From Candidatus Hydrogenedentota bacterium (GTDB taxonomy: Bacteria; Hydrogenedentota; Hydrogenedentia; Hydrogenedentales; SLHB01), in contig JAWXCN010000113.1 of assembly GCA_034408725.1 (NCBI GenBank), forward strand, positions 1 to 55,065: a stretch of 55,065 nucleotides of DNA. Reading direction: 5' to 3'. Shown in pieces: positions 1 through 39,288 of the stretch; the stretch's first letter is position 1, and every line of letters begins with the position of its first letter. The notes beneath the pieces are model-generated. The model was not told the DNA's origin. It searched no databases and saw only the letters and a program-made list of their open reading frames with translations. A program made the position numbers and the translations under genes.

Positions 1-375
1 GCGCAGGGCCATCTCGAACGCCCGGTATCGCTTGGCACATTCGCGAAAACGGTGAGGCGCGCTCTGGGCGCGCGATTCGTTCGCGTGGTCGGCGCGCAAG
101 ACACGCGGGTACACACGGTCGGCGTAATCGGCGGTTCGGGTGGCGGCGAAATCGCGCATGTGCCACACGCCGTGGACGTGCTGGTCACCGGCGACGTCGG
201 GTACCACGATGCGCTTGCCGCGCAGGAACGCGGGCTTGCCGTAATCGATGCCGGCCACGCCGCGGCGGAGAAATGGATCGTACCGGCCGTCGCCGCACAC
301 CTCAAGGCGCAGTTCAAAAAACTGCGCGTCACCACCTATATCGAGCCCGAATTGTTCCGGGCAGTTACGGAGTAG
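1..375 (+). CDS. Nif3-like dinuclear metal-centre protein (YqfO/YbgI family), 5'-truncated by the window edge
   Basis: Open frame from base 1; motifs GGSGG, LVTGDVGYHDA and IDAGHAAAE are typical of the NIF3 C-terminus. Confidence 0.88.
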   Translation, partial: AQGHLERPVSLGTFAKTVRRALGARFVRVVGAQDTRVHTVGVIGGSGGGEIAHVPHAVDVLVTGDVGYHDALAAQERGLAVIDAGHAAAEKWIVPAVAAHLKAQFKKLRVTTYIEPELFRAVTE

Positions 376-383
376 TTTCAATC

Positions 384-1847
384 ATGGCGAGTCCGTTAAA
401 AATTTTGTTTGTGACTTCCGAAGCCGCGCCGCTCGTCAAGACCGGTGGCCTTGGCGACGTTTCGCGCGCGCTGCCCAGCGCGTTACGCGCGCTCGGTCAC
501 GATTGCCGCATCGCAATGCCGGGATACGGCACTATTCCAGAAAGCGCCTGGGGCGAACAGGTCGCCACCTGCACGGCAATGCTCGACATACCGATTCACG
601 GCGCTGTCCGGCGCACAATGCTACCCACGACAGATATCCCCGTTTATCTCATCGAACACAATGACTTTTTCAACCGCGAACATCCCTACGTCACAGCCGG
701 CAAGGAATACCCCGACAACGTGCAGCGCTTCTGCTTTTTTTGCCTGGCGGCACTGGATGGCGTTCACAACGCCGGCTGGATTCCGGATATCGTGCATTGT
801 CACGACTGGCATACCGCGCCCATTCCCGCGTATATAAAAACGCGCTGCATCGATCATCCGACATGGAGCAACAAGCCCTCCGTGTTCACGATTCACAACA
901 TGGCGTACCAGGGCCGCTATTCATCCACGCTGATGCCGAAAACCGGTCTCGGCTGGGAGTTGTTTACCCCGAAATACCTCGAATTCTACGGCGACATAAA
1001 CCTGATGAAAGCCGGCATTATCTTCGCGTCCAAGATCAACACCGTTAGCATGACCTATGCGAAGGAAATCCAGACGGACGTCGCTGGCCACGGGCTCGAA
1101 GGCGTTTTGCGCACGCGCGCGCTGGACCTCAGCGGGATTCCGAATGGCGTTGATTCTTCCATCTGGGACCCCGGCAACGACCCGCGCATTCCCGCGAGTT
1201 TTAACGCGACCACCCTCGCGGGGAAACAGGTTTGTAAGGAAGCACTGCAACGCCGCATGCATTTGCCCGTTGGCAACACCCCTGTCTTCGGAATGGTCAC
1301 GCGGCTTGTCTGGGACAAGGGCATCGATCTGTTGCTCTCCTGCCTCGATGATTTCCTGCGACGCGACGTGCAGTTGGTTATTCTCGGGTCAGGCGACCCT
1401 GTTTTCGAAGATGCCTTGGCCGCGGCACAGGCCCGCTACACCGACAAGATGGCCGTGTGCCTCGGATACAATGAAGACCTCGCCCATCAGATTTACGCGG
1501 GCTCGGATTTCTACCTCATGCCGTCGCATACGGAACCCTGCGGATTGAGCCAGATGTATGCCATGCTCTACGGCGCGCTCCCGGTCGTGCATCGCACCGG
1601 CGGCCTCGCCGACACCGTCACCGACGCGTTGCCGTCGAATACTGATCGAAACCGCGCGACTGGCCTTGTCTTTGCAAGCTGGAGCGAACGCGCGTTTCAG
1701 AACGTGATTGCGCGCGCGCTCAAACTGTACGAGGAGCCAGCGAAACTGCGGGCCGTACAGCGTGTGGCGATGGGGCAGGATTTTTCGTGGGAGCGTTCTG
1801 CCAACGCCTATGTGGACCTGTTCCGCCAGGCCATCGCGCAACCGTGA
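384..1847 (+). CDS. glgA: Glycogen synthase (GT5)
   Basis: ATG at 384 (MASPLKILFVTSE); KTGGLGDV, HCHDWH, TIHN and EPCGLSQ motifs. Confidence 0.96.
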   Translation: MASPLKILFVTSEAAPLVKTGGLGDVSRALPSALRALGHDCRIAMPGYGTIPESAWGEQVATCTAMLDIPIHGAVRRTMLPTTDIPVYLIEHNDFFNREHPYVTAGKEYPDNVQRFCFFCLAALDGVHNAGWIPDIVHCHDWHTAPIPAYIKTRCIDHPTWSNKPSVFTIHNMAYQGRYSSTLMPKTGLGWELFTPKYLEFYGDINLMKAGIIFASKINTVSMTYAKEIQTDVAGHGLEGVLRTRALDLSGIPNGVDSSIWDPGNDPRIPASFNATTLAGKQVCKEALQRRMHLPVGNTPVFGMVTRLVWDKGIDLLLSCLDDFLRRDVQLVILGSGDPVFEDALAAAQARYTDKMAVCLGYNEDLAHQIYAGSDFYLMPSHTEPCGLSQMYAMLYGALPVVHRTGGLADTVTDALPSNTDRNRATGLVFASWSERAFQNVIARALKLYEEPAKLRAVQRVAMGQDFSWERSANAYVDLFRQAIAQP

Positions 1848-2305
1848 GCAAAGACTCATTGACCATCGAAACGGTCTCGCCCGAAGAGACAGAACGGCTC
1901 GGGCGCGCGATAGCGGCGCTGATGCCGCGCGGCGTTGTCGCGTTGCGCGGCGATCTCGCTTCGGGCAAAACTTGCTTTGTGCGCGGCATGGCGCAGCATC
2001 TGGGCGCGCCGCTGGCCGTACACAGTCCCACGTTCACATTGATCAATGAATACGGCAACGAACGAAAACTCTACCACTTCGATTTATATCGTTTGCGCGG
2101 CCCCTACGACGTCGAAGACCTTGGCAGCACGGAATTGTTCGAGGCCGACGCCCTCTGCGCAGTGGAATGGGCCGAACGCGCCGAAGGCCTCCTGCCCGAC
2201 ACCCGCGTAGACATCTCGTTCCAACACGCCGGCGACGACCGCCGCCGAATCACCATCACCAATCACGGCTTGCTGGACCCCGGCTGGCCAAACGCCTTTG
2301 GATAG
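1844..2305 (+). CDS. tsaE: tRNA t6A biosynthesis ATPase TsaE
   Basis: GTG overlaps the glgA stop (GTGA); GDLASGKT, SPTFTL, HFDLYRL and VEWAE motifs. Confidence 0.95.
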   Translation: MSKDSLTIETVSPEETERLGRAIAALMPRGVVALRGDLASGKTCFVRGMAQHLGAPLAVHSPTFTLINEYGNERKLYHFDLYRLRGPYDVEDLGSTELFEADALCAVEWAERAEGLLPDTRVDISFQHAGDDRRRITITNHGLLDPGWPNAFG

Positions 2306-2307
2306 CC

Positions 2308-2485
2308 GCGCCTTGGACTACGGCGTGTCAGCACCACTTTCACTTCGGGGTACTCGAAATCCTCGAATAAATTTGAAGGCTTCAGGCGCCCGCGAATCGA
2401 AGCCAGCGCGATCTCGCTTAATTGCGAAGCAATCTTGCCCAGGAAATGGAAAGCGGGAGATACCCGCTGCCGCACTCCAAGGCGC
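2308..2485. repeat. REPIN-like element, GGAG/GGAC-TGCGG family (degenerate)
   Basis: Terminal inverted repeat gcgccttgga...tccaaggcgc; internal ctttcacttc and aaagcgg segments match the other copies. Confidence 0.7.
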
Positions 2486-2549
2486 TCCGCGCGAGCCAAT
2501 CTCATTTTGAATTGCGCAGCTGGACCGTACTTCTGAATCGCCACACGCC

Positions 2550-5282
2550 TCAGCCGCCCGCGATCGATTTCAGTTGCTCCGTGTTCACCGTACTCACCGC
2601 CTCATCGAAGTATTGCATGTCTCGCATCGCAATCGTAGAATCCCCAATCGTAACTTTCCGCGTATTGACTCCGCGCGCCCGCGCCTCGCGATCCGATCCA
2701 AACGTAACGCAGAGCAGTTCCCCATTCAGCACGATACTGCGCTCCGGCATCGCGATGGGAGCGCCACCTGCACTGTTGAACAACAATACATCGGTGTCGC
2801 CATCCGCTCGATCTATCTCAATTCCAACAACCGAATCTGGAGCTGCGCTGCCATTTAACTCGACATCAACCCGCCGCATCCCCTTAATCTTCGACACCCC
2901 ATCATGCGGCTCAATCACACTCACAAATGTCGATTCCAATGGCGCCGCTGTCGTCTTCCGCCGCACCATCACGCGCGGAATCCATTCCGTTTCCTCGCCG
3001 CCGTAAATGCCCGTATCCACCCACGCCTCACACACCGACGCCTCCGCATCGGTCGTGAAATCGGTATAGTTCAAATAGACCTTCCGATTATCCGCGATAT
3101 AGTCATACTTGTCCTCCAGCGTCCACGCGACACTCCACCCCGGTTTCGCGTCTGCATCCGTTTTGAACGCGCGCATCTGTGTGTTCCCGTCAAAATCAAC
3201 GCCATCCGCAAGCGTCAACCCGTTCGTCTCGATAGTGCCGAAAAACGATCCAAAAAATTTCGCGTGATCCCCGCCGCCTTTCACGCGAAATACATCCACG
3301 ATGTACGAATCGCGCCCATCCAAATCTACCATCGCGAGCGTGCGCTCGTACGTCTCCCCGCCGATCATTTCGGGGGATGATACGCGGATCGCATGAAAGT
3401 CTTTGCCATCGGCCCACAACCCCGTTGTGCCCTGCGCGGCCTTCTGGTTCTGGCCATCGACAACAACAGTCGCGTGCGACGCAGTCTTCATATACCACGT
3501 CGCGCGTGGCGCGCCCCATCCGCCATAGCCTACGGGCGGGTAACCAAAATCGGGAATGAGATCGAGACCCTTTGCAAACAGTCCAATGTTCATTCCGTCC
3601 CAGTGCCCGTGTCCGCCGCCTGAATCGTAATCAATCCAAAGCGCGCGGCGGTTCTCGCCCGTGCCCGCGCGAAGCAATGCCACGCGCCAAATCTCCTTGT
3701 TGACGCTCGCGGTATTGATCTCTGCGCCATGCGTGTCGATCACGTTTTGTACCCCAGCCTGGATCGCCGCCGGATTCTCCGCAAACAGATCGTGCGGAAG
3801 CCCTTCGACTGTTTTGCGGTTCTCCAGAAAAATTACCTGCAGAAACGCGGGTGAAAAAGCAGGATCGTCTGTGATGCGATACAGGTCCCACAAAAACGAG
3901 TACACCGACCCCTCCGCGCCCGTGTTCGGCGTCATCACCGTGCTACCATACGCGGCTGATTTTTTGCCAAACGCGTTCGCATCGCCAATCCGCGGATACC
4001 ACTCTTCCATGCACCAGATGTCGATGTAAAAACGAAACGCATCAACCACTTTCGGTTTCCGCGCAATGGTCGTCTTCAAAAAGTCGGGTTCCAACCGCGA
4101 CATCTGAATCAGGATTTCCGCCAGCGCGCTCGGCGCAACGCTCGAATATCCCCCGATGCCCTTCTCGCCGCTCATGCCGTCCACCGCGGTTGATTTGTCA
4201 ATGATCGCGTCAAGCTGCTGCATCACTTCCTCGCGGTTTTCCGGCCAACGCAGCACCGCGTGAATCACCAAGTTCGTCATGTCCGTGCGCGGATAATTCG
4301 ATTCGATGCGTTCCCGATGCGCAAGCGTGTCTTCGAAAATCCCGGACTCGATGTTCCGCTGAATATCCGCCCACGACGTTTTTGCATTCGCAAGTTTGTG
4401 TTCCCCAGCCTTGCGCGAAAGCAACGCGACAAGCTCCGCCTCCTGCGCCTTCGCACCGTCAAATACCCGGTCATACGCATACGCCAGCGCCCGCACTTCT
4501 TCGCATGCATCATGCCACGTCGAGACCTGCCCCCGCGTGCCGTTCGTCGTTTCGTACACCCAACCGCCCTGCGTATGAAAATCGAAACTCGGATACAAAT
4601 CCGCCACGCGGTCCAGCAAGAGCGCCGCCTTATGCGCATACCGCGGATCGCCCGTTACCGCGTACGCCGCGCTCAGGCTCACAATCCCCTCGTGTACCAG
4701 CTTCTTCCAATGCCCGAAGATCACGTAGTACCCGATAAACCGCCAACGATGTTCATCAGCCACATAACCGTCGCCGTCCTCCACGCCAAACGTGTGCAGC
4801 GGATCCGCGGGATCGGGATGCTCCGCGTTGAATAACAACGCCTTGTCCGCGAGACCAGGCTGAAACACGCCATGCTCGTCAAAACCCGATCGGTGATACT
4901 TCTCAAAATCGTTTTTCGGAAACAGCTCGCTGCACTTCGGACACTTCAACTTCCACGGATGCGCAAACGGGTCCGCGACCCATTCATACATCCGAACATC
5001 CGCCTTGCAGGAAGGACAATACCCATCCGACCACACATGCCAAGTTCGCGGAATGTTCGGGCCCATCATCATGTCCCACAGCGCGTCATCGCTGAACCCC
5101 ATCCAAGGTTCCGCGCGCTTCACCACATCATCGCGAATCGCCCGCGCCCAGTCGTGCGCCTCTGCGTTCGCCCGCGCCCGCGCAAGAATCTCCGTCGAAT
5201 AAAACACGCTACCCGTCTTCACCGGTCCTTGTGAAACCGCCGCCAAACACGGCAACAAACAGACAAACACCATACGCAGCAT
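2550..5282 (-). CDS. Secreted heparinase II/III-like polysaccharide lyase
   Basis: ATG 5282 with GGGGAG RBS; signal peptide; GHGHWDGMNIGL and SHATVVVDG motifs; N-terminal CPSC...CPKC. Confidence 0.75.
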   Translation of the reverse strand: MLRMVFVCLLPCLAAVSQGPVKTGSVFYSTEILARARANAEAHDWARAIRDDVVKRAEPWMGFSDDALWDMMMGPNIPRTWHVWSDGYCPSCKADVRMYEWVADPFAHPWKLKCPKCSELFPKNDFEKYHRSGFDEHGVFQPGLADKALLFNAEHPDPADPLHTFGVEDGDGYVADEHRWRFIGYYVIFGHWKKLVHEGIVSLSAAYAVTGDPRYAHKAALLLDRVADLYPSFDFHTQGGWVYETTNGTRGQVSTWHDACEEVRALAYAYDRVFDGAKAQEAELVALLSRKAGEHKLANAKTSWADIQRNIESGIFEDTLAHRERIESNYPRTDMTNLVIHAVLRWPENREEVMQQLDAIIDKSTAVDGMSGEKGIGGYSSVAPSALAEILIQMSRLEPDFLKTTIARKPKVVDAFRFYIDIWCMEEWYPRIGDANAFGKKSAAYGSTVMTPNTGAEGSVYSFLWDLYRITDDPAFSPAFLQVIFLENRKTVEGLPHDLFAENPAAIQAGVQNVIDTHGAEINTASVNKEIWRVALLRAGTGENRRALWIDYDSGGGHGHWDGMNIGLFAKGLDLIPDFGYPPVGYGGWGAPRATWYMKTASHATVVVDGQNQKAAQGTTGLWADGKDFHAIRVSSPEMIGGETYERTLAMVDLDGRDSYIVDVFRVKGGGDHAKFFGSFFGTIETNGLTLADGVDFDGNTQMRAFKTDADAKPGWSVAWTLEDKYDYIADNRKVYLNYTDFTTDAEASVCEAWVDTGIYGGEETEWIPRVMVRRKTTAAPLESTFVSVIEPHDGVSKIKGMRRVDVELNGSAAPDSVVGIEIDRADGDTDVLLFNSAGGAPIAMPERSIVLNGELLCVTFGSDREARARGVNTRKVTIGDSTIAMRDMQYFDEAVSTVNTEQLKSIAGG

Positions 5283-7178: not shown

Positions 7179-8256
7179 CCATCATCTTTACAAACCGCCC
7201 GAACAGGTAGCGGCTGTCGTGCGGTCCTGGCGATGATTCGGGATGATACTGCACGCTGAAGATCGGCAGTTCCTTGTGCTCCAGCCCTTCTACAGAGCCG
7301 TCATTCAGATTTACGTGCGTCACGCGCACTTTGGACTCGTCCAGCGAATCAGCGTCCACCGCAAACCCGTGGTTCTGCGCGCTGATTTCCACTTTGCCGG
7401 TGTGATGATCCATGACCGGCTGGTTGCCGCCGCGATGCCCAAACTTGAGTTTGAACGTTGTGCCGCCAAGTGCGTGGCCGAGAATTTGATGGCCGAGGCA
7501 AATGCCAAATATCGGTTTCACTCCCATCAAGCCCTGCACCGCGGGATAGATATACGAAAGCGCCGCGGGATCGCCGGGGCCGTTCGACAGAAAGATGCCG
7601 TCCGGCTTATGCGCAAGCGCCTCGTCCGCGGTCGCGGTCGCCGGCATTACGATCACGCTGCAACCGTGCGCCTCAAGCAAACGCAGGATGTTGTACTTGA
7701 TGCCGTAATCGAAGGCCACCACCCGGTACTTGCCCTTGAATTCAGGATTCCAGGTATAAGGCTCGGTCACGCTCACGGCCTTCACATAGTCGCTGCCCGC
7801 CATGTCCTGGGAGTTGATGGCCTTTTGCACGAGACTCGCGTGATCAAAATCCGCTGTGCTCAAAACCGACTTCTTCGCGCCTTCGGTCCGCAATAGCTTC
7901 GTGATTTTGCGGGTATCCACGCCCTCGATCCCGATAATATTATGTTCTTTCAAATATTCGGGCAAAGTCTGTTTCGACCGCCAGTTACTCGGTTCATGGC
8001 AGCATTCGCGCATGACGAAGCCTTCGACAAATGGTTTGCGCGACTCGGCATCATCGGGATTCACGCCATAGTTGCCGATCAACGGGTAGGTCATGGTAAC
8101 GATCTGCCCGGCATACGACGGATCGGTGAGAATTTCCTGATAGCCCGTCATGCTCGTGTTGAACACGAGTTCGCCGGACGATTCACCCTCCGCGCCAACC
8201 GCCCGGCCCTCGAATACCTCTCCCGTTTCCAGCGCAAGAACTGCTTTCACCTGCAA
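7156..8256 (-). CDS. carA: Carbamoyl-phosphate synthase small subunit
   Basis: [28 protein letters not shown] and [12 protein letters not shown] motifs. Confidence 0.97.
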
Positions 8257-8323
8257 TATTCCCTTTTCAACTACTTCAAACCGATCAGGATATTCTACCT
8301 CAACACCCCGTGTGGGGACAAAA

Positions 8324-8640
8324 CGCCTTGGAGTGCGGCGGCGGTAGCCGCCGCTTTTACTTCAAGACACCAGCAGCGCCATGTACCGTCTCCAGACCAC
8401 GTGCAAGCCGAAGTGAAAGCGGTAGCTGCGTCTGAAGCGGACTCCGCTACCGCAGTCCAAATAGTCCTCATCCCAAACGGCAAGTTTTAGGAAGTAGCCT
8501 ATTTGGACTGCGGCGGCCCCCAAGGCGCCGCTTTGGCTGTTTATCACAGTCGACCTACCCTCACCCTGCGCGCACAAAGCCCTCGCCTCGAAACAGCCAA
8601 AGCGGCATCTGCGCACCCGCTCCGCTACCGCAGTCCAAAC
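8324..8640. repeat. Two adjacent REPIN-like elements (type I 8324-8460, type II about 8500-8640)
   Basis: ttggagtgcggcggcggtagccgccgcttt...aaagcggtagc...ccgcagtccaa, then ttggactgcggcggcccccaaggcgccgctttggctgttt...aaacagccaaagcgg...ccgcagtccaaa. Confidence 0.9.
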
Positions 8641-8668
8641 GGCGTTCGGCGCAAATGTGGCGGTATGG

Positions 8669-9547
8669 CTAATGCCCGTGCCCGTCCCCGTGCGCGAGTT
8701 CGTGAAACAGTATCCCGGCCTCGTTCGCGGGAAAATCGTTGCCCGGCCCCGAAGCGTAACGCAAAAACGAGACATGCCCGTCCATGTACAGCACATTTGA
8801 TCCACCGGGCGCATGATTGAAATGAGTCGCGTCGTCACTTAACACGTCCCACATCACCGCGATACTCGATTCCGACGTCGAGCTTCGCACGGGATCGTTG
8901 ATGTCGGAGATGAAAAACCGCTCAATACCATCAACCAATCGGAACACCCGGTCGTGCCCACCCATGAAATGATGGTCCAACTCCCAATCCAAGTCGACCA
9001 ATCCCGGATCGTCCTCGAGCGCTTCTGCGAAGTGCGGGCCTTCATGCTCGATTGAGGTCAGATCGTCGTCCGTCAAGAACATGCCGCTCATGAACGCATA
9101 TCCGAGGTACGCGTACGGATGGTCGGTCAATTCGCAAGGTTCGACGATTCCGTTGTGCGATGTCGGGCCTTCGTCCCAATGCGCGGATTGATTGTTTCCT
9201 TCGTCCCACACTTCAATTGCTGAAGAACCACCGATCGCGCTTGGGCACAACAGCACGTTCAGATCAGTGAGGTATTCGGGATACACCATCGCGCCGTCGA
9301 AGATGGACGAAAACGGCACGACCTCGTCCGCGCAATTGAAGATTTGCATCGGCGGGTACTTGTGCCCCTTGCTTCCGCTTGAATACATCTTGAATACAAA
9401 ACCGAGTTGTTTGAGATTACTTTGGCAGCTTGCGCGCCGCGCCGCTTCGCGCGCACGGGCGAGCGCCGGTAACAGTATCGCGGCAAGGATGCCGATGATG
9501 GCAATGACCACCAGAAGTTCAATCAATGTAAAACCACGTTTCCTCAC
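8669..9547 (-). CDS. DUF1559 / prepilin-type N-terminal cleavage-methylation protein with H-X9-DG C-terminal motif, His-rich
   Basis: GTG 9547 with AGGAG RBS gives [50 protein letters not shown]; tail [12 protein letters not shown]. Confidence 0.9.
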
Positions 9548-9652
9548 GGAACATACTCCTAACAAAACGGGGCGATTCGCCACCGGGTTTAATGACAATT
9601 GGGTGCGCGCGCGACTACACGCACGGCGCGCAACAGGAATTAAAACGCAGGA

Positions 9653-10060
9653 TCAGGAAAAGATTGGAAAAACAGGAGGATCGCGCGGGCGCGCGGAGTG
9701 GCGGGATTCCGTCGAAAGGAATTCTTCCACGGATCCGGGATTGGATAATTCCGCGACAGATGCGGGGTGATCGCAATAGACGTAGCTCTGGACGTCAATG
9801 AACCCTTTGACAAGATGGCAGAAAGCGCACGCGGGATGTTTGTCGCCGTTCGGCCGCATCTCGCGATCAGCGCCAGTCTCCTTCGCCTGCGGCGAGCATT
9901 GTGTCGCGCAGCACGAAGCCTGTGCTTCGCCACTCTTCGCGGCCGCGAGTGTCGCGCACATGCCCGGCACGAGTCCGCGGGCATTGCTCAACACGCAAAA
10001 CGCCAACATCGCTAACGCGATGATGCGAAAATTCGTTCTGTGCCGTGTTTGCCAGTACAT
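9653..10060 (-). CDS. DUF2946/CruR-like leader protein (hydrophobic N-terminus, CxxC, C-terminal RxPP)
   Basis: Hydrophobic IIALAMLAFCVL segment, GMC, CCATQC, HPACAFCH, and RPRDPP six residues before the stop. Confidence 0.65.
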   Translation of the reverse strand: MYWQTRHRTNFRIIALAMLAFCVLSNARGLVPGMCATLAAAKSGEAQASCCATQCSPQAKETGADREMRPNGDKHPACAFCHLVKGFIDVQSYVYCDHPASVAELSNPGSVEEFLSTESRHSARPRDPPVFPIFS

Positions 10061-10203
10061 GCGAATAGAATCCTGGTGGCAACCCCGGATACAAGCTCCA
10101 TAGTGTACGCGACGAATGGCGGGTTCGCAATCTTCGCGCCCTCCATCCCCATCGGTGCGCCGCTTCTGCTATAGTCGCCCGATTCATTACTTCGCAGGCG
10201 GGC

Positions 10204-11589
10204 ATGAAACCTTTTGACGAACAACTTGTCTCCGGAAACATCGTCCGGAGTGTCTGGAAACTGGCTTGGCCCATCGTGCTGATGAACCTCATCAACGGTG
10301 TCCACGGCATGGTCGATCAGAGTCTCATTGGCCACACGGTCGAGCGCGACGCCGCCAATGCCGCCGTCGGCATCTCCTGGAACCTGTTCCTCGTGGTTGT
10401 CGTGTCGCTCGCGTCCCTGTTTCATGGAATGGGCGTGCTAATCGCCCAGGCAGCGGGCCGTCAGGATCGCGCGCGCATGAATCGCGTGCTGTACCACAGC
10501 GGGCTGCTTACATCATACGTCGTGTTGGTCGTGGTCACTCCCCTGGGCTATCTGCTGGCGCCATACTTGCTCCAGACTGCCAAGCCATCCCCGGAAGTGG
10601 CATCGTATGCGCTGCCTTATCTCCGGATGCTGTTTCTATTCACCATTACCTTGTCGCTAAATTTTCTCTTTGGCATTGCCATGCAGACCTCGGGCGATGC
10701 GAAGCGCCCGCTGATGTTGGTTGTGCTCACCACGGGCCTGCACGTTGTCCTGAGTGCCGTGTTCATAACAGGTTTTGGCCCGTTCCCCAAACTCGGCGTA
10801 ACGGGCGCCGCACTCGGCGCGGGCCTCGCCCCGATACCCTCATTGTGCATTGCGCTCTGGCTTATCGTAACCAAGCGGACAATTCTCGGGCTGCCCGACG
10901 CGTTTCCCCTCAAACCAGACTGGGAAGTCATTCGCGCGGTGATGCGCATCGGGGTTCCCAGCGGCGTACACGCGGTAGCACTGAACATTGGCGGCATCAT
11001 GTTGTATCGCTACATCGGCTTGCTGGCGGACAGTGCCGCCGCGCAGGCCGCGTACACCCTGTGCTACGCGCAACTCTTTTCGTTCGTTACGTGGGCGGCG
11101 CTCGGATTGCGCGGGTCCGCATCCGCGCTCATGGGACAAAACATCGGCGCCGGCAAAGCCGAACGTGGCCGCCGCGGCGTACACGTTGCTGCAATCATGG
11201 GCGGGGCGTGGGCGATTGTTTGGGGAGTGGCGGTATGGCTATGGCCGATCCAGTTCCTCGGCGTTTTCTATCCCGCGCAGAACGCCCACAGCCTTGTCTT
11301 AGAATTTGGCCAGTCGCTGCTAAAATACCTATCCATATCGGGACTGTTCCTCGCTGTTGCGCTTGTGCTGACCGGCGGCCTCATGGGCGCCGGAGACACC
11401 AAGAAACCCATGTACATCGCCATCCTTACGCAAATTATAATTCTGCTGAGCATCTGCGAAATCTATTACCGGTTAGATATGCTCACCACCAACGCAATTT
11501 GGTCGGCAATTCTTATTAGCCACGTCAGCCGATACGTCTTAACCCACATCGTCTTCCACAACGCGCGCCTTAAGCCAAACGCACTCTGA
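10204..11589 (+). CDS. MATE family efflux transporter
   Basis: About 12 hydrophobic segments; KLAWPIVL, GDAKRP, LGVTGAALG, GQNIGAG and GAGDTKKP motifs. Confidence 0.92.
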   Translation: MKPFDEQLVSGNIVRSVWKLAWPIVLMNLINGVHGMVDQSLIGHTVERDAANAAVGISWNLFLVVVVSLASLFHGMGVLIAQAAGRQDRARMNRVLYHSGLLTSYVVLVVVTPLGYLLAPYLLQTAKPSPEVASYALPYLRMLFLFTITLSLNFLFGIAMQTSGDAKRPLMLVVLTTGLHVVLSAVFITGFGPFPKLGVTGAALGAGLAPIPSLCIALWLIVTKRTILGLPDAFPLKPDWEVIRAVMRIGVPSGVHAVALNIGGIMLYRYIGLLADSAAAQAAYTLCYAQLFSFVTWAALGLRGSASALMGQNIGAGKAERGRRGVHVAAIMGGAWAIVWGVAVWLWPIQFLGVFYPAQNAHSLVLEFGQSLLKYLSISGLFLAVALVLTGGLMGAGDTKKPMYIAILTQIIILLSICEIYYRLDMLTTNAIWSAILISHVSRYVLTHIVFHNARLKPNAL

Positions 11590-11632
11590 TCTGTCGTTAG
11601 GAAGTGTGGCTCCACTCATGATTTCACAAGCA

Positions 11633-11915
11633 GCCTATTTGGACTGTTTATGACAAATGGTCTACCCCTTGCTGGGGTGCGCACGAGGCCCTCTCCCCTA
11701 AACAGCCAAAGCGGTGTCTCCGCTACCCGCTTCGCCACCGCAGTCCAAAATAGTCCCTTCCGAAAACCACGTCCTATCAAAAAGCCTATTTGGACTGCGG
11801 CAGCCCCCAAAGGCGCCGCTTTGGCTGTTTATCAGTCGACCTACCCCTTACAGCGCGCACCCAAAGCCGTCTGAGCATGCCAGCAAAATCGAAAGCTACC
11901 GCGTCCTCGCTCCAA
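11633..11915. repeat. REPIN-like cluster (type II, one arm internally deleted)
   Basis: atttggactgttt (collapsed arm), aaacagccaaagcggtgtctccgctacccgcttcgccaccgcagtccaaa and tttggactgcggcagcccccaaaggcgccgctttggctgttt. Confidence 0.85.
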
Positions 11916-14738: not shown

Positions 14739-14940
14739 GCCTTGGAGTGCGGTAGCGGTAGCTACCGCTTTCACTTCAAGTAACCCGCAGCGCAACGCAA
14801 AATTATAATACCTTTACAGCATTATGAAAAGCGGGAGCTACCGCTTTCACTTCGGATTGCAGTTAGTCCCAACTCATTGCAACTCGCCACTGCTCCCTCG
14901 AAGTCAAAGCGGCAGCTACCGCCGCCGCATTCCAAGGCGC
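14739..14940. repeat. REPIN-like cluster (type I)
   Basis: gccttggagtgcggtagcggtagctaccgctttcacttc...aaagcgggagctaccgcttt...aaagcggcagctaccgccgccgcattccaaggcgc. Confidence 0.85.
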
Positions 14941-15067
14941 TTCGCGCGGCGAGCACTTGAATGTTCAATCCTAGACACAATCCCGCGCAGCCTCAAGCGG
15001 GCATACTTGCTTGCGCAGCGGGACGCGCCTGTGCAAGAGTCTTCGACAACCCGGAGCCCGAATCTCC

Positions 15068-16576
15068 ATGCACATTTCACGACGCCAATTTCTCAAGCGC
15101 GGATCAGGCGCGCTTGCCCTAGCTTCGCTGCCGCTGATCACCGGGTGCCCACTCGCGGGCCTCATTCGCACCGTCGAATCGCGCCGCTCCGTTGACGGTA
15201 TTCTCGAAACGGACCTGTGTGTCTGCTTCGCCCGCAATCGCATTGATGAGACGTGGCTGCGATCAAGGACGTACGAAGGTCGCATCCCCGGGCCTACGTT
15301 GCGCGCGAAACCGGGCGATACCCTACGCATTCATATCCAAAACGCACTCCCTAACGAAAACGATGATGACGGTCACACGCACAGCCACAAAGGCGGACAT
15401 AACCACAACATTCCCGGCGGATTCAACATCACGAATTTTCATTCGCATGGACTTCACGTTTCACCAAAGGGCAATGCTGACAACCCGTATCGCATGTTCA
15501 TGCCCGGCGACACTAATATTGTCCAGATCGACATTCCCGGCGACCATCCCGCCGGAACGTTCTGGTATCACCCGCACCACCACGGCGCAGTCACCGCGCA
15601 GCTCATGGGCGGCATGGCGGGCGCGCTAATTGTCGAAGGCGACATTGATGACGTGCCCGAAATCGCGGAAGCGCGCGAACACATTCTAGTTATTCAAGAG
15701 CTGCGCATAAACGAAGACGGCGAAACCCCGCTGATGGACGAACACACGTTTCATGACGGCCACCACGCGGACTTCGCAGGAAGCGTGTTGAAGCGCACGA
15801 TCAACGGACAAGTGAATCCCACGATTACCATGCGCCCCGGCGAAGTGCAGCGCTGGCGGTTCATCCAGGCAGGCGTCGAACAAATCACACCCATCGCATT
15901 GGACAATCACGCATTTCACCACATCGCAATGGACGGCATTTCCTTCAAGAAGCCCGATGAAGTAGACAGCGTCGTTCTCGCGCCGGGCAACCGCGCGGAT
16001 GTGCTCGTGAAAGCGGGCGCGCCAGGCACTTACTACCTCCGCAAACACGCATACGATCAGGGCGCCGGCGAAGTCGACGAAGACATCCTCGCCACCGTGA
16101 AAGTGCAGGGCTCCCCACTCGACATGCCGTTGCCAACCGGCTTGCCCACGCCGTCATCGCTCCAGTTCATCGCCGACGACGAAGTAGAAACCATCCGGCA
16201 GGTGTCGTTCAGCGTCGACGCGGCAGGACCCGGCGAAATGTTTCCACGCTTCACGATCAACGGCCAACTCTTCGACCCAGACCGCATTGATGAAGCGATC
16301 CCGCTCGGCGCCGTTGAAGAATGGATCATCACCAGCGCAACAACCGACGAACACCCGTTTCACATCCACACACACTCATTTCAGGTGTCCGAAATCGAAA
16401 ACGAACCCGTGCGTCCAAAACGCTGGCAGGACACGGTCATTGTGCCCGGCTTCGGAATCGTGCGCGTTCGAATCCGGTTCAACGACTTCGTTGGAAAATC
16501 CGTCTACCATTGCCACATCGTCACGCACGAAGACCTCGGCATGATGGCAAACTTCAAAGTAGCCGGCCAATCCTAG
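15068..16576 (+). CDS. Multicopper oxidase (CueO/laccase-like), predicted Tat lipoprotein
   Basis: SRRQFLK Tat motif and LITGC lipobox; copper motifs HSHG, WYHPHHHG, HPFHIH and HCHIVTHEDLGMM. Confidence 0.93.
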   Translation: MHISRRQFLKRGSGALALASLPLITGCPLAGLIRTVESRRSVDGILETDLCVCFARNRIDETWLRSRTYEGRIPGPTLRAKPGDTLRIHIQNALPNENDDDGHTHSHKGGHNHNIPGGFNITNFHSHGLHVSPKGNADNPYRMFMPGDTNIVQIDIPGDHPAGTFWYHPHHHGAVTAQLMGGMAGALIVEGDIDDVPEIAEAREHILVIQELRINEDGETPLMDEHTFHDGHHADFAGSVLKRTINGQVNPTITMRPGEVQRWRFIQAGVEQITPIALDNHAFHHIAMDGISFKKPDEVDSVVLAPGNRADVLVKAGAPGTYYLRKHAYDQGAGEVDEDILATVKVQGSPLDMPLPTGLPTPSSLQFIADDEVETIRQVSFSVDAAGPGEMFPRFTINGQLFDPDRIDEAIPLGAVEEWIITSATTDEHPFHIHTHSFQVSEIENEPVRPKRWQDTVIVPGFGIVRVRIRFNDFVGKSVYHCHIVTHEDLGMMANFKVAGQS

Positions 16577-17903: not shown

Positions 17904-20180
17904 ATGCGTATTCCCTGCGCCATAGCCCTTCTCGCGCTTGCCGCGCTCGCGTCTACCGCCGAAGACGCCGCGGCGCACTGGTCATTCATCGCGCCGGCGC
18001 GGACCAACCCACCTGCTACGTCCAACCCCGCGTGGATCCGCAATCCGATTGACGCGTTCGTGCTACACCGGCTGGATGTCGAGGGTCTTGCGTATTCGCG
18101 GGAAGCGCCGCGCGAAACTTTGCTCCGGCGCCTATCGCTTGACCTCGTAGGCCTGCCGCCCGCGCTCGAAGACCTCGATGCGTATCTCGACGACACCGCG
18201 CCAGACGCCTACGAAAAGCAGATCGATCTCCTGCTCGCCTCGCCGCATTTCGGCGAGAAGTGGGCGCGGTGGTGGCTCGACCTCTCTGGCTACGCCGACA
18301 GCGACGGCTACCTCTCCGACTTTCTGCGGCCCAACGCCTGGCACTATCGGCAATGGGTCGTCGATGCATTCAACGCAAACATGCCCTTCGATCAGTTCAC
18401 CGCCGAACAACTCGCAGGCGATTTGATCCCCAACGCGACCACGCGCCAGCGCATCGGCACGGGCATGTTGCGCAACACCATGAACAACCGCGAAGGCGGC
18501 GCGGACCTCGAAGAATTCCGGGTGAAACAAATCGTCGCGCGCGCCAACATGGTTGGCACGGCGTGGCTCGGACTCACCATCGGTTGCGCGCAATGCCACG
18601 ATCACAAATTCGATCCGATATCCCAGCGCGACTACTTTGCAATGTACGCCTTCTTCAATAACGGCGACGAAGTCAACGTGAATACACCCATCGGCGACGA
18701 ACAGACAAAGCACGACGTGGCGCGTCCCACGTACGACGCAAAACGCGCGGAAATTCTCGCGCCGGTGCTCGTCGACGTCGAAATGCTCCAGGCAGAGTGG
18801 GAACGCAAGATGCTCGACGCCGCGAACAATCCCGGTACGGCCGATTCAACTTGGGCGCGGCAATGGGAAGTGCTTGCGCTGGTGTGGGGACAGAACTACG
18901 GCGAAGGCCAGCACGAAGGCAGTCAGATCGTAAAAATTCCGGTGGCCGAACGCACGAAGGACCAGAAAGATCGGTTGCTGGACTATTTCATTCAGAACGG
19001 CTCGCTGGTTAACGAAGCCAAGTGGGCGGAACTGAAACTGAATGATATTCGGAAGCAACTCGATGAACTGGCGAAAACGCTGCCGCTGCTTAGTCGCGCG
19101 CCAACGATGATGGAGAGCCGCGAACGCCGCGTGACGCATCTTCACAAACGCGGCGATTTCCGCGCGCCCGGCGATGAAGTGCAACCAAACACGCCCGCAG
19201 TCGTGCCTGCGTCGCTCGTGACGGAAACGCCCACGCGCCTCGATCTTGCGCAATGGCTCACGCGCCGCGACAACCCGCTCACCGCGCGCGTGTTCGTGAA
19301 CCGCGTGTGGCATGACCTGTTTGGCCGCGGCCTTGTGCACACCACCGAAGACTTCGGAACGCGCGGCGCAAAACCGTCGCACCCCGAGTTGCTCGACTGG
19401 CTTGCGGTCGAGTTCATGGATTCCGGCTGGGATGTGAAGCACCTCATTAATACAATCGTGATCTCATCCACGTATCGGCAATCGTCGAATCGGCGGCCGG
19501 AATTAAATGAACGCGATCCAAACAATGAATTGCTCGCGCGACAATCGCGGAACCGTCTTAGCGCGGAACTGGTGCGCGACAATGCGCTCGCGGCCAGCGG
19601 ACTGTTGAACGCAACCATTGGCGGACCCAGCGTGCGCCCGCCGCAACCCGACAGCGTGAGCAAGGAAGGGTTCGACAACAAATGGGTCGTCAGCGAAGGC
19701 GCACACAAATATCGCCGCGGCATTTACACATTCATTCAACGCACATCGCCGTTTGGTCAATCGGTTACATTTGATCTGCCCGACCCCGGCCAACCCTGCA
19801 CCCGCCGCGAACGATCGAACACCCCGTTGCAGGCGCTGAACCTGCTGAACGATCCCATGTTCGTCGAGTGCGCGCAATCGCTCGCGCAACGAATCGAATC
19901 GTTCATTCTCCGCCGCATGCGCGAAGGCAATCCCGCAACCGTCGAGGACTGCATCAATCACGCGTTTCGCATAGCCCTCACGCGCAACGCATCACCCGAA
20001 GAACGCGCGCGCCTCGCCGCATACCTCCCACAACAAGCCGCAATCTACGAAACCGATCCCAGCGCAGCATCCGCCCTGCTAGCCTCGCGCAGCAATGACG
20101 ACGAAAACATCGATGCAGCCGCCTGGACCGCAGTGTGCAGCGTGATTCTCAATCTCGACGAGTTTATAACAAGGGAGTAA
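17904..20180 (+). CDS. DUF1549/DUF1553 (PSD1, planctomycete-type) protein
   Basis: NPIDAFV, RRLSLDLVGLPP, GCAQCHDHKFDP, PSHPELLDWLA and NTPLQAL motifs. Confidence 0.93.
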   Translation: MRIPCAIALLALAALASTAEDAAAHWSFIAPARTNPPATSNPAWIRNPIDAFVLHRLDVEGLAYSREAPRETLLRRLSLDLVGLPPALEDLDAYLDDTAPDAYEKQIDLLLASPHFGEKWARWWLDLSGYADSDGYLSDFLRPNAWHYRQWVVDAFNANMPFDQFTAEQLAGDLIPNATTRQRIGTGMLRNTMNNREGGADLEEFRVKQIVARANMVGTAWLGLTIGCAQCHDHKFDPISQRDYFAMYAFFNNGDEVNVNTPIGDEQTKHDVARPTYDAKRAEILAPVLVDVEMLQAEWERKMLDAANNPGTADSTWARQWEVLALVWGQNYGEGQHEGSQIVKIPVAERTKDQKDRLLDYFIQNGSLVNEAKWAELKLNDIRKQLDELAKTLPLLSRAPTMMESRERRVTHLHKRGDFRAPGDEVQPNTPAVVPASLVTETPTRLDLAQWLTRRDNPLTARVFVNRVWHDLFGRGLVHTTEDFGTRGAKPSHPELLDWLAVEFMDSGWDVKHLINTIVISSTYRQSSNRRPELNERDPNNELLARQSRNRLSAELVRDNALAASGLLNATIGGPSVRPPQPDSVSKEGFDNKWVVSEGAHKYRRGIYTFIQRTSPFGQSVTFDLPDPGQPCTRRERSNTPLQALNLLNDPMFVECAQSLAQRIESFILRRMREGNPATVEDCINHAFRIALTRNASPEERARLAAYLPQQAAIYETDPSAASALLASRSNDDENIDAAAWTAVCSVILNLDEFITRE

Positions 20181-37331: not shown

Positions 37332-39173
37332 CTACTTCTTCGGTTTGCTCTTCCCTGCCTTCGATCCCGATGGCAATTGCGCGACGTATCCCGCCGCGGC
37401 GGCGTTTGACGTTTTCGCGGGCGTGCCGGAGTAGGTATTCGCATCATCGGCGGCCGATGCGCGCGCGCCTTCAAACGATACAATGCTGATCGCCAAATTC
37501 TCCTTCGAGGCGTTCGGCGTCGTTTCTACCTGCCACAGCATGGGCGCGGGCGATGCAAGGTCCAGTGGCCGCGCGAAGAAATCCCTGCGCGCCACGGCAT
37601 CGGCGACCGCCTTCCGCGCGCCGGCGGAAGGACTGCCGATTACTTCCACGGGCGCGCCACAAAACGCGATGGCCGTTGCCGTTTCATCGCTGATATCTTT
37701 TCCGCGCGCCGCGTCAAACCGGATGGGTGCAGTCACGACGTTGTACTCACCCAACCGTGCAGTGGCCGCGGCCGCGGCAAGCCATTCGTCACGTCCGCCA
37801 CCCAACGCGCCTTGCGATGCGGCGAAGACAGGCGCGCCGCCCGAGGCGGCGATCATCATGTCCATCGCAAGCGCATCGGCGCGCGCGCGCGTGATATTGA
37901 AATTTTTCAAGACTTCGTTGGGAATACGCGATGGCGAAACGGCGTAGAAATCAAAGCCCCACCCGGCAATTTTCTTCATGCGGGCCACTCCGTGGGCCAT
38001 GCCCTCGGGGACCGCGGGATTCACCCATATTTGGCCGTCTTCCGATTTCGCCGACCAGGCATCATTCATTTCCGCTATTGCGAGCGGATCAACCGTAATA
38101 CCCGCCGCCCCGCCTTGACGAAGCTGCGAAGCGACGCCACGCATCTCCCGCGGCCATGCGGGGGCCGCGCCGTCCTGAGAACCTCCCCGCGCCTCCCAGG
38201 TCACCGGCACAAGTGCCGCGCCAATACCGCCCCAGTCCGTCCGGGCAGCCTGCAAATCTGCAAAGGATTCACCATCCGGCACAGTCACCCAAGCGTTCGG
38301 TACGGAATCCGGCTGGGCGGGCTTCGGGAAATTCTTACAAGCGTGGGCGTAGAACAGATCGACGTCTTTTTGGGTCGGCGTAATAAAACTGATCCACGTG
38401 GCGTCGCCCTTGATGGTCTGACCCGGCTCGACGCGCACCGGAGGGTCGAAAACACTGGTGACAGAACCCTGCCACGCGCCGGAAAACGGTTGAAGTTCCA
38501 CCGTCGTTTTGGACTGTCCGTTGGACAACGATCCCATACCCAGCAGCAGGCCGGTGGCCGGGTCGTGAATGAACGTCGCGTAAGGCGCGGCATCAGGCGA
38601 ATACACCGGACAGGGACCCTGCATGGTGAATCGCCGATGCGAGACCGTTGTTTGAGTGCCCAGCGATTTCAGGCTACCCGGCGGAATAATCACTGAACTG
38701 ATCTTTGCGACCTCGATCGGGGCCGTGCCCACGTTTTTTACTTCCAGCCGCAACAGGTAAAAAGGATGTTCGCTGTGATACGCGACGGAATGGCGCAACG
38801 AAATCCCATCTTTCGGCGGGATATTCACGATGTACTCGATGCCCGGTCCCAACTCACCGGTGTAAGCGTTCCGATTGGTCACGCCCACGCCGTGCAAGGC
38901 GGATTCGATGGTTTTACCATCGGCGAACGTTACGGACGAATTCACCTTGTCCATGAGCAGGTCGTCGGCTTTGGTTAGCGACCACTGCCCATTATCACCG
39001 CCATAAATAAATTGAAACCCTTCCGGCGCGAAGGTGTAATGGTCCCGCAATTTCCAAGGCAACAGCCGCGGTTCCGGTGCTCCGCCGTCTTTAGCCGCTC
39101 CGGCGGCTGCGAACAAAGGCGTGGCGAGGACACACAGGTACGCGCAAACGAGCAGGCGGGAAAGTTGCAGCAT
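37332..39173 (-). CDS. Secreted hypothetical protein resembling a degenerate GH36/GH27 alpha-galactosidase
   Basis: Signal peptide; VNPAVPEG...KKIAGWGFDFY resembles the LDPT-P...WGFDYxKxD region of clan GH-D. Confidence 0.5.
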   Translation of the reverse strand: MLQLSRLLVCAYLCVLATPLFAAAGAAKDGGAPEPRLLPWKLRDHYTFAPEGFQFIYGGDNGQWSLTKADDLLMDKVNSSVTFADGKTIESALHGVGVTNRNAYTGELGPGIEYIVNIPPKDGISLRHSVAYHSEHPFYLLRLEVKNVGTAPIEVAKISSVIIPPGSLKSLGTQTTVSHRRFTMQGPCPVYSPDAAPYATFIHDPATGLLLGMGSLSNGQSKTTVELQPFSGAWQGSVTSVFDPPVRVEPGQTIKGDATWISFITPTQKDVDLFYAHACKNFPKPAQPDSVPNAWVTVPDGESFADLQAARTDWGGIGAALVPVTWEARGGSQDGAAPAWPREMRGVASQLRQGGAAGITVDPLAIAEMNDAWSAKSEDGQIWVNPAVPEGMAHGVARMKKIAGWGFDFYAVSPSRIPNEVLKNFNITRARADALAMDMMIAASGGAPVFAASQGALGGGRDEWLAAAAATARLGEYNVVTAPIRFDAARGKDISDETATAIAFCGAPVEVIGSPSAGARKAVADAVARRDFFARPLDLASPAPMLWQVETTPNASKENLAISIVSFEGARASAADDANTYSGTPAKTSNAAAAGYVAQLPSGSKAGKSKPKK

Positions 39174-39288
39174 GAAGAATTCTCCAAAAAATACGGGCTT
39201 GCGGCAGAGTATAGCAGAACTGCGCGAAGCCGCCCTTGATTGCGCGCCGCGCCGCTCCTACAATCACCTTTCATTGGAGACTGTGTCA

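Follow-up and report, generated by a model that had tools for sequence, protein, structure and literature searches.

A candidate arrest-type leader of the CruR/CutF kind paired with a His/Met-tailed pilin-like gene in Hydrogenedentota

The window analysed here (55,065 nucleotides (nt), contig JAWXCN010000113.1 of assembly GCA_034408725.1, from a Candidatus Hydrogenedentota bacterium) holds on its minus strand a small open reading frame (ORF) of 135 amino acids (aa), the leader, followed by the gene of a prepilin-type DUF1559 protein. The relatives of this leader have kept two motifs, CxxC and RxPP, the distance between them and, in most cases, a pilin-like gene as partner; the presence of a leader correlates with a His/Met-rich C-terminal tail on the pilin-like protein. 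Judged together with known systems, this is probably a leader of the CruR/CutF kind, of a divergent Hydrogenedentota subfamily, that gates the production of a metal-binding pilin-like protein; that the ribosome arrests, which metal is the ligand, in which direction regulation runs and that the pilin-like protein binds metal are what we infer. A preliminary description made from the letters of this DNA had proposed a leader of arrest type, with CxxC and RDPP, ahead of a DUF1559 gene with a candidate metal-binding tail, and this core stands as a proposal drawn from the sequences.

The leader ORF and its family

The leader and its parts are as follows.

9653-10060, minus strand: leader ORF, 135 aa, from the ORF list and from homologues with invariant motifs
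9986-10024, minus strand: N-terminal hydrophobic segment IIALAMLAFCVLS, residues 13-25, with Arg-rich residues before it; mean Kyte-Doolittle value 2.8
9947-9979, minus strand: block R28-GLVPGMC35-ATL (RGLVPGMCATL), with R28, P32, G33 and C35 nearly invariant in alignments
9908-9913, minus strand: Cys-Cys pair C50, C51, nearly invariant in an alignment of 27 sequences
9818-9829, minus strand: CAFC (C78-x-x-C81), candidate metal-binding motif, invariant in 27/27 sequences
9686-9817, minus strand: linker of 44 residues between C81 and R126, fixed in length, gapless and unconserved in sequence
9674-9685, minus strand: RDPP (R126-P129), candidate arrest motif, with R, P and P invariant in the 27-sequence alignment

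The hydrophobic N-terminus, the CxxC and the RDPP six codons before the stop had been read from the 135-aa ORF at the outset, and all of them lie at these positions; the 44 residues then given between CxxC and RDPP are those counted between C81 and R126. RDPP is encoded by CGC GAU CCU CCU (9685-9674), with the Pro-Pro codons CCUCCU at 9679-9674, and after it come six codons and the stop TGA at 9655-9653. From their hydrophobicity, residues 13-25 are probably an export signal or signal anchor. The neighbour upstream of the leader is a MatE gene in divergent orientation.

But could a frame of this size be a chance ORF? This is ruled out, as homologues carry the same motifs. A word-indexed search with the leader found four homologues with 55-32% identity, and a profile search of 1.84 billion representatives returned 204 clusters at E<=0.001, 136 of them at E<=1e-10. 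Matches to the leader profile occur in 17 of 61 close genomes and in 51 of the 135 genomes of the phylum Hydrogenedentota, and those relatives that bear an NCBI name are annotated 'hypothetical protein'. A regular expression for CxxC, 42-47 aa and RxPP near a stop hits nine frames in the 5.17-Mb source genome. Two of the nine look like genuine leaders, and both precede pilin-like genes.

The invariant columns of the 27-sequence alignment are M1, C78, C81, R126, P128 and P129. CxxC and RxPP occur together in 146 of 152 family proteins, and the first Cys lies 48 aa from the Arg in 130 of these 146, 47 aa in eight and 49 aa in another eight; at 74 genome loci the same distance is 48 aa in 61, 47 in three and 49 in ten. 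Whether the two motifs are conserved had been named as a check on the original idea, and the answer is favourable, the motifs being invariant in the homologues and the spacing 48 aa (47-49 in all). The arrest motif reads RAPP in 75 of the 146 relatives, RGPP in 36, RDPP in 31 and RSPP in four; RDPP, suggested earlier as a variant arrest motif, is one of four natural variants of the family. The CxxC is mostly CAFC (86), with CALC in 25, CPFC in 20 and other forms in 15. Between one and ten residues follow the Pro-Pro in 145 of the 146 proteins. A hydrophobic 13-mer, defined by hydrophobicity only as a stretch N-terminal to CxxC with a mean Kyte-Doolittle value of at least 1.8, is found in 138, with Arg or Lys directly before it in 133 of these. 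With such motifs, the ORF in the window is very probably an arrest-type regulatory leader, one that would stall the ribosome translating it. At one locus (L018/L028, G036:C8) the leader is frameshifted into two ORFs covering profile positions 4-33 and 21-133, which may be a pseudogene or an assembly error.

The gene pair and the pilin-like protein

Which genes follow these leaders? Genome searches, together with one slice of the source genome, gathered 94 loci with 82 distinct leader ORF hits (one of these searches used a 5-sequence leader alignment and yielded three loci). Complete leaders with both motifs account for 74 of the 82 hits, while of the other eight one is frameshifted and the rest are cut off by contig ends. 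Downstream DNA of at least 700 nt is available for 71 of the complete leaders, and 65 of these 71 are followed within 700 nt by a same-strand ORF with a prepilin motif, at a median distance of 155 nt from leader stop to motif. The conservation of the leader/DUF1559 gene pair, a further check attached to the preliminary description, is thereby answered in the affirmative. Some loci have tandem arrangements (leader-leader-pilin or leader-pilin-leader-pilin). At L006 (G002:C80) and L014 (G033:C8) two leader-pilin cassettes stand back to back on opposite strands, which suggests duplication of the whole cassette.

The six exceptions have other partners. At L090 (G068:C574, minus strand, 147-3276) the leader heads an OEP (PF02321) gene followed by a CusB/HlyD_D23 gene, a unit that, from its domains, looks like a CusC/CusB-like heavy-metal efflux operon; this leader is short, belongs to the same family and has a hydrophobic stretch within its CxxC-RxPP linker. 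Another leader heads an ABC/MacB-type exporter, three near-identical ones stand before the gene of a secreted protein that shows cytochrome c signatures only weakly, and the sixth heads a protein without a family match.

A motif scan of the source genome finds 14 prepilin-motif ORFs of at least 200 aa, of which exactly two, in the window and on contig C15, carry leaders; because only two of the 14 do so, the pairing is not a by-product of the abundance of pilin genes. The second pair (G000 contig C15, about 460-1700, minus strand, locus L097/L103) has a leader with CALC that ends in RRGPPSL. It is of a different subtype, with a His-rich N-terminal part, EGHEALLGPHHAAAHADAESHQSHETNHE, instead of LVPGxC and CC, and its pilin-like protein ends in LHEASHGHEH.

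Beyond the pilin-like gene the neighbourhood changes. The genes 3' of it vary by locus (G6PD, PSCyt, S41 peptidase, GT4 and others), which rules out a conserved third gene in the unit, and because the genes beyond are not conserved, leader and pilin-like gene are taken as a two-gene cassette. At L063 (4459-4983, plus strand) the last part of a pilin-like gene with a leader is overlapped by the frame of a 175-aa protein whose YHS domain is of a metal-binding type; this protein is the only copper-type neighbour seen 3' of a pilin-like gene.

The pilin-like gene of the window has these features.

8669-9547, minus strand: prepilin-type DUF1559/H-X9-DG protein, 292 aa, GTG start at 9547-9545, from Pfam and NCBIfam
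9506-9535, minus strand: prepilin cleavage/methylation motif, from Pfam and NCBIfam, invariant in an alignment of 55 sequences
8774-8815, minus strand: H-X9-DG region, H245 ... D256 G257 H258, invariant in 55/55 sequences, with a TIGR04294 match
8672-8722, minus strand: C-terminal helix with H282-E-L-A-H286 and disordered tail GDGHGH, candidate metal-binding end, from an AlphaFold2 model and the alignment

The ORF listing extends the frame to TTG at 9598; GTG 9547, and not TTG 9598, is probably the start. The protein carries a type IV pilin N-terminus, scoring 37.1 bits with PF07963 (N_methyl; cut-off 21.2) and 37.4 with TIGR02532 (cut-off 16.3), and it matches both models of the DUF1559/H-X9-DG family: TIGR04294 (H-X9-DG) with 24.4 bits against a cut-off of 19, and PF07596 (SBP_bac_10/DUF1559) with 41.8 against 23.3, but over profile positions 2-38 only. 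To our knowledge this family has no established function. The AlphaFold2 model has a predicted local distance difference test (pLDDT) score of 88.7 and a predicted template modelling (pTM) score of 0.84, with a helix at 276-286 and residues 289-292 below pLDDT 50. Foldseek gave no match of the model in the PDB at E<=0.001. A wide structure search with VIA-align placed only pilins and pseudopilins among its best matches, all of them weak (Z <= 4.6): PilA4 with Z 4.6, a root-mean-square deviation (rmsd) of 3.7 and 121 aligned residues, and EpsG with Z 4.4, rmsd 3.1 and 95 aligned. In a sequence search of the PDB the match is limited to the N-terminal pilin helix.

What, then, is particular to the pilin-like proteins that follow a leader? 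The 55 that were aligned are 40-78% identical to that of the window. H245, D256, G257 and H258 are also present in leaderless paralogues. The positions specific to the group are H282, found in 40 of the 55, position 286 (His in 27, Met in 12) and position 242 (His in 28, Met in 14), and such His/Met interchange is typical of copper sites. Four Cys are well kept too (C41 in 55/55, C72 in 46, C101 in 53, C138 in 44). The leader-associated clade thus adds to the family a C-terminal H-x3-[H/M] helix and a His/Met-rich tail, for which GTMGMMGGGMGHP is an example, and these are absent from leaderless paralogues. The His-rich tail noticed in the preliminary description is there in the translation, and the C-terminal His/Met region is conserved.

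A control within the genus compared the 30 best-scoring DUF1559 genes of five genomes, a gene counting as leaderless where at least 600 nt upstream were visible. In the last 15 aa, genes with a leader have a mean of 4.0 His+Met (n=12) vs 0.25 in those without (n=16); at least three His+Met occur in this stretch in 9/12 vs 0/16, and the H-x3-[HM] motif in 10/12 vs 0/16. The correlation of leader and His-rich tail that had been put forward for testing therefore holds (9/12 leader-associated vs 0/16 leaderless). The 12 leader-associated genes are also the 12 top scorers of the control, a ranking that is partly circular because the search profile was built from leader-associated proteins. DUF1559 matches number about 20-45 per genome, and leaders stand on only two or three of them, mainly on His/Met-tailed paralogues. 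In a quick maximum-likelihood tree, 43 leader-associated proteins and both proteins of the source genome form a clade of 45 (SH-like approximate likelihood-ratio test, SH-aLRT, 98), which excludes the leaderless paralogues of that genome.

Proposed mechanism, read-out and rival explanations

The closest known systems are the leaders of the DUF2946 family. The hallmarks given for them are a CXXC, a C-terminal RAPP, a constrained spacing between them, an export signal in more than 95% of members, first place in the operon and a long spacer (PMC9426467). The leader of the window has a CXXC, a C-terminal RxPP, the spacing, an export signal (by hydrophobicity) and the position of first gene ahead of a long spacer. 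In CruR (Bp2923) of Bordetella pertussis, likewise a small exported first-gene peptide with an invariant CxxC, R-x-P-P near the stop and a long spacer, the CXXC is at 90-93 and RAPP at 139-142, three residues from the end, and the spacing matters (PMC9426467). The distance from Cys to Arg is 49 aa in Bp2923 vs 48 aa here; the motif is RAPP in a proteobacterium vs RDPP in Hydrogenedentota, and the target of CruR is a TonB-dependent transporter with a PepSY protein, vs a prepilin-type DUF1559 protein here. The additional LVPGxC block, the CC pair and the sub-cut-off PF11162 score belong to the subfamily described here, while a Rho-dependent output and the relief of the stall by copper are features of CruR. 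Arrest of CruR has been shown in vitro, its two Pro codons then occupying the P and A sites; RAPP and RGPP are strong arrest motifs, with RDPP and RSPP partially permissive in ApdA/ApdP (PMC12992588).

CutF of Rhodobacter capsulatus (bioRxiv 10.1101/2025.02.05.636593) is also DUF2946-type, with a signal sequence, a Cys motif and further Cys residues upstream of it, and a C-terminal Pro-rich stall site. Stalling on CutF opens an mRNA structure that hides the next ribosome-binding site (RBS), as that preprint reports, and in the family described here the Shine-Dalgarno is predicted to pair with the stall site. Unlike the leader here, CutF has CxxxC, PPP, dependence on elongation factor P (EF-P) and a multicopper oxidase as target; the predicted unmasking effect is absent in this window. 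ApdA/ApdP and SecM are likewise small exported proteins, encoded ahead of the gene they regulate and bearing an R-x-P-P core close to the C-terminus, but they monitor Sec/YidC activity and are without a CxxC sensor at a fixed distance (PMC10951233, PMC12992588).

Has the pairing with a pilin-like gene been seen before? In the CruR paper, the part on synteny names no targets of the pilin kind and, for Planctomycetes, just 'a few' DUF2946 genes (PMC9426467), and the words prepilin, pilin and DUF1559 are absent from the main text of the 2025 survey of upstream ORFs with RAPP/RGPP, figure labels and supplements aside (PMC12992588). The earlier statement that no description of the pairing was known agrees with these main texts, in which no pilin-like target appears; the supplements and figure labels (Table S1 and Fig. 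7 of PMC9426467, Fig. 4 of PMC12992588) may list some.

How close is the leader to DUF2946? The Pfam model PF11162 (DUF2946) matches the window leader end to end (profile positions 3-117 of 117) with 17.8 bits and E 0.0059, and a six-frame search of the source genome returns only two matches, which are the two leaders, at 17.3 bits (window) and 17.7 bits. At E<=1 the model matches 15 of 27 leader relatives, the best at 1.3e-5. From these alignments we read the leaders as a divergent sister subfamily of DUF2946 (CruR/CutF type) in Hydrogenedentota.

How might such a cassette work? By analogy with CruR and CutF, the leader peptide would be exported during its synthesis via the N-terminal signal. 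Peptide-bond formation would become slow once the ribosome reaches R126-D-P-P129, at which point CAFC, 48 residues back, would be just outside the exit tunnel along with the conserved upstream Cys. Metal binding or disulfide formation by these Cys would set the duration of the stall, copper being the likeliest metal, and the length of the stall would determine expression of the next gene. The C-terminal helix and tail of the pilin-like protein (H-x3-[H/M] and the His/Met-rich stretch) may then serve as binding site for this metal, whether in the periplasm or on a pseudopilus. For the output, a step with weak support, the stalled ribosome would cover a C/U-rich stretch that is otherwise paired with the Shine-Dalgarno, and stalling would then switch on translation of the pilin-like gene, as in CutF. 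That the signal is a metal, with copper as the first candidate, is rather likely by this comparison; hints of a metal are the His/Met interchange at 242 and 286, the CusC/CusB-like operon and the YHS-domain neighbour.

The RNA between the two genes has the following elements.

9548-9652, minus strand: spacer from leader to pilin-like gene, 105 nt, structured; family median 134 nt, range 41-319
9606-9632, minus strand: GC-rich hairpin, tgcgcgc (9632-9626) with gcgcgca (9612-9606), in the sequence and the minimum-free-energy fold and not in the centroid
9561-9584, minus strand: small hairpin GGUGGCGAAUCGCC then CCGUUUUGUU, terminator-like, directly before the ribosome-binding site, from a pattern scan; the hairpin is also in the centroid fold
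9556-9560, minus strand: Shine-Dalgarno AGGAG of the pilin-like gene, 8 nt before GTG; 86% paired in the predicted ensemble

The GC hairpin, which had been placed between the Pro-Pro codons and the RBS, is present there and forms in the predicted fold, the minimum-free-energy fold of the window having a z-score of only -1.9 and a frequency of 0.005. An Rfam scan of 8200-10400 found no spacer family, its two chance matches to microRNA models both falling on a repeat hairpin.

Analyses of the read-out cover 62 leader-pilin pairs. The Shine-Dalgarno of the pilin-like genes is predicted to be 81% paired, with its partner concentrated from -6 to +18 nt around the end of the Pro-Pro codons, and the middle of the spacer takes only 0.03 of its pairing. 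The share of pairing in the stall region is 0.44 vs 0.195 when the 36-nt segment is shuffled, with 41 of the 62 pairs above the shuffled value (Wilcoxon p 1.3e-4, from sequences that are not independent). CCU serves as first Pro codon in 24 of 62 pairs, compared with 12% of the Pro codons in the same genes; it yields CCUCC, the complement of GGAGG. When a mask of 29 nt stands in for the stalled ribosome, the mean unpaired Shine-Dalgarno rises from 0.19 to 0.31, vs 0.20 for a control mask 45 nt upstream.

What weighs against this reading, from the kinship of the leader to its output? The Pfam score of the window leader (17.8 bits) does not reach the gathering cut-off of PF11162 (23.7 bits), for which reason the leader is classed as a divergent DUF2946 relative and not as a formal Pfam member; the DUF2946 membership proposed at the start survives as a distant relationship with an end-to-end match and falls short in its score. 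Taken by itself the Pfam evidence is weak, since at the lax threshold of E<=1 PF11162 also finds some match in 9 of 14 control genomes. Copper is probably the metal on the grounds of analogy and His/Met chemistry only, and nickel, zinc, silver or the redox state are also possible. The correlation of leader and tail is real, yet largely that of one clade, and 11 leader-associated pilin-like proteins without a His/Met tail fall outside it. The two internal His clusters to which the preliminary description had drawn attention are present in the window protein and are not kept among the 55 relatives, which rules them out as conserved metal sites. As the genes beyond the pilin-like gene are not conserved, no operon context fixes the function. 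For the read-out, the gain from unmasking exceeds 0.3 in only 12 of the 62 pairs, and in the window the mask leaves the accessibility of the Shine-Dalgarno unchanged (0.14 -> 0.14), as it does in the C15 pair. In the ensemble of the window, the start of the pilin ORF takes 0.47 of the Shine-Dalgarno pairing and the Pro-Pro region only 0.24. The pairing of the Pro-Pro codons with the AGGAG of the RBS, also proposed at the start, is hence a tendency of the family that the window's own ensemble does not prefer. RNAalifold on nine related spacers returned no consensus structure (0 pairs, on a poor MAFFT alignment of diverged spacers), so that covariation lends no support. Since the sequences are phylogenetically related, their p-values make the evidence look stronger than it is.

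Read-out by unmasking of the ribosome-binding site is thus a possible outcome on the folding predictions, somewhat short of an even chance, and as its support is modest, a Rho-dependent read-out like that of CruR is kept as a rival. Here the sensor would be the same and the stalled ribosome would block Rho, or an attenuator hairpin in the spacer, and so control read-through of transcription rather than access to the RBS. CruR itself works through Rho with a spacer of 162 bp (PMC9426467); Rho is encoded in the source genome, the spacers are long (median 134 nt) with C exceeding G in 44 of 62, and the window has the small hairpin with a U-run just before a Shine-Dalgarno that the stalled-ribosome mask does not free. 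On the other hand, C exceeds G only weakly in the spacers (mean skew +0.07, below the +0.115 of the leader coding region), their predicted high degree of structure would disfavour the loading of Rho, and across the family the Shine-Dalgarno finds its pairing partner mostly at the stall site. Transcription termination as the read-out is a tentative option, and the rival built on it is doubtful to the same degree.

The two other rivals change the role of the small protein itself. If the leader monitored export or oxidative folding (Sec/Dsb, in the way of SecM or VemP), its five conserved Cys would report the disulfide formation that the pilin-like protein needs. Arrest peptides of the RAPP type are classically secretion monitors (PMC10987492, PMC7897499), the leader has both an export signal and the five Cys, the pilin-like proteins have four well-conserved Cys, and in the CutF model disulfide formation is part of stall relief (bioRxiv 10.1101/2025.02.05.636593). 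Yet leaders stand on only two or three DUF1559 genes per genome, mainly His/Met-tailed ones, while leaderless paralogues share the fold; a leader of the same family also heads the CusC/CusB-like efflux operon; and CxxC and spacing match the copper-responsive CruR. This makes a folding monitor improbable. More improbable again is a functional and stable small protein, exported and rich in Cys, that acts alongside the pilin-like protein, for instance as metallochaperone or assembly factor, its RxPP being incidental or structural. Strict co-occurrence would suit a two-protein machine too, and the RxLVPGLCAT block and the CC pair are conserved beyond the needs of arrest alone. But between CxxC and RxPP the length is kept and the sequence is not, which is atypical of a folded domain, the spacers are long and structured and show no tight translational coupling, RxPP is strongly avoided in proteomes except in arrest peptides (PMC12992588), and CruR is reported as poorly structured and undetectable as a protein (PMC9426467).

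Other features of the window and meaning of the finding

Dispersed intergenic repeats lie at 8321-8640, 11617-11834 and 14739-14942, with direct copies of 60-97% identity and inverted arms of up to 107 nt. They occupy the intergenic stretches that follow the pilin-like gene and the MatE gene and the one that precedes a multicopper oxidase gene, and they yield spurious ORFs with similar peptides; the family looks like repetitive extragenic palindromic (REP) or miniature inverted-repeat transposable (MITE) elements. The multicopper oxidase (15011-16576, plus strand) has three domains and a twin-arginine-like start, RRQFLKRG, and lies 5 kb from the leader-pilin pair. A CutF-like leader for this gene was considered and rejected, no CutF/CruR-like small ORF being found upstream of it. 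A PSCyt2/PSD1 (DUF1549/DUF1553) protein and a MshEN-domain protein are encoded at 17904-20180 and 39121-40389 (both plus strand), both of a type that is mostly mentioned in connection with Planctomycetes and with the ATPases of type II/IV secretion.

What does the cassette mean for these bacteria and for the two protein families? DUF2946 leaders such as CruR and CutF represent a recently recognised form of copper sensing by nascent chains, and the leaders described here would extend the principle to a poorly known phylum, with a subfamily missed by standard annotation, an RDPP variant and a new class of target. The near-exact ruler of 48 residues, kept over more than 140 diverged sequences, is a data set on how a signal is transmitted from outside the tunnel to the peptidyl-transferase centre. 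For the DUF1559/H-X9-DG family, present here in dozens of copies per genome, the pairing gives a testable hypothesis, namely metal binding by the C-terminal His/Met module. It is a speculative step further that the clade consists of copper-binding (pseudo)pilin subunits of a periplasmic or surface fibre that buffers or scavenges metal, its synthesis gated by an exported nascent-chain copper sensor. If true, a copper-binding pilin clade would provide a first function for any part of the very large DUF1559 family, and the leader would be the first arrest-peptide metal sensor to control a pilus-type structural protein rather than a transporter or an oxidase.

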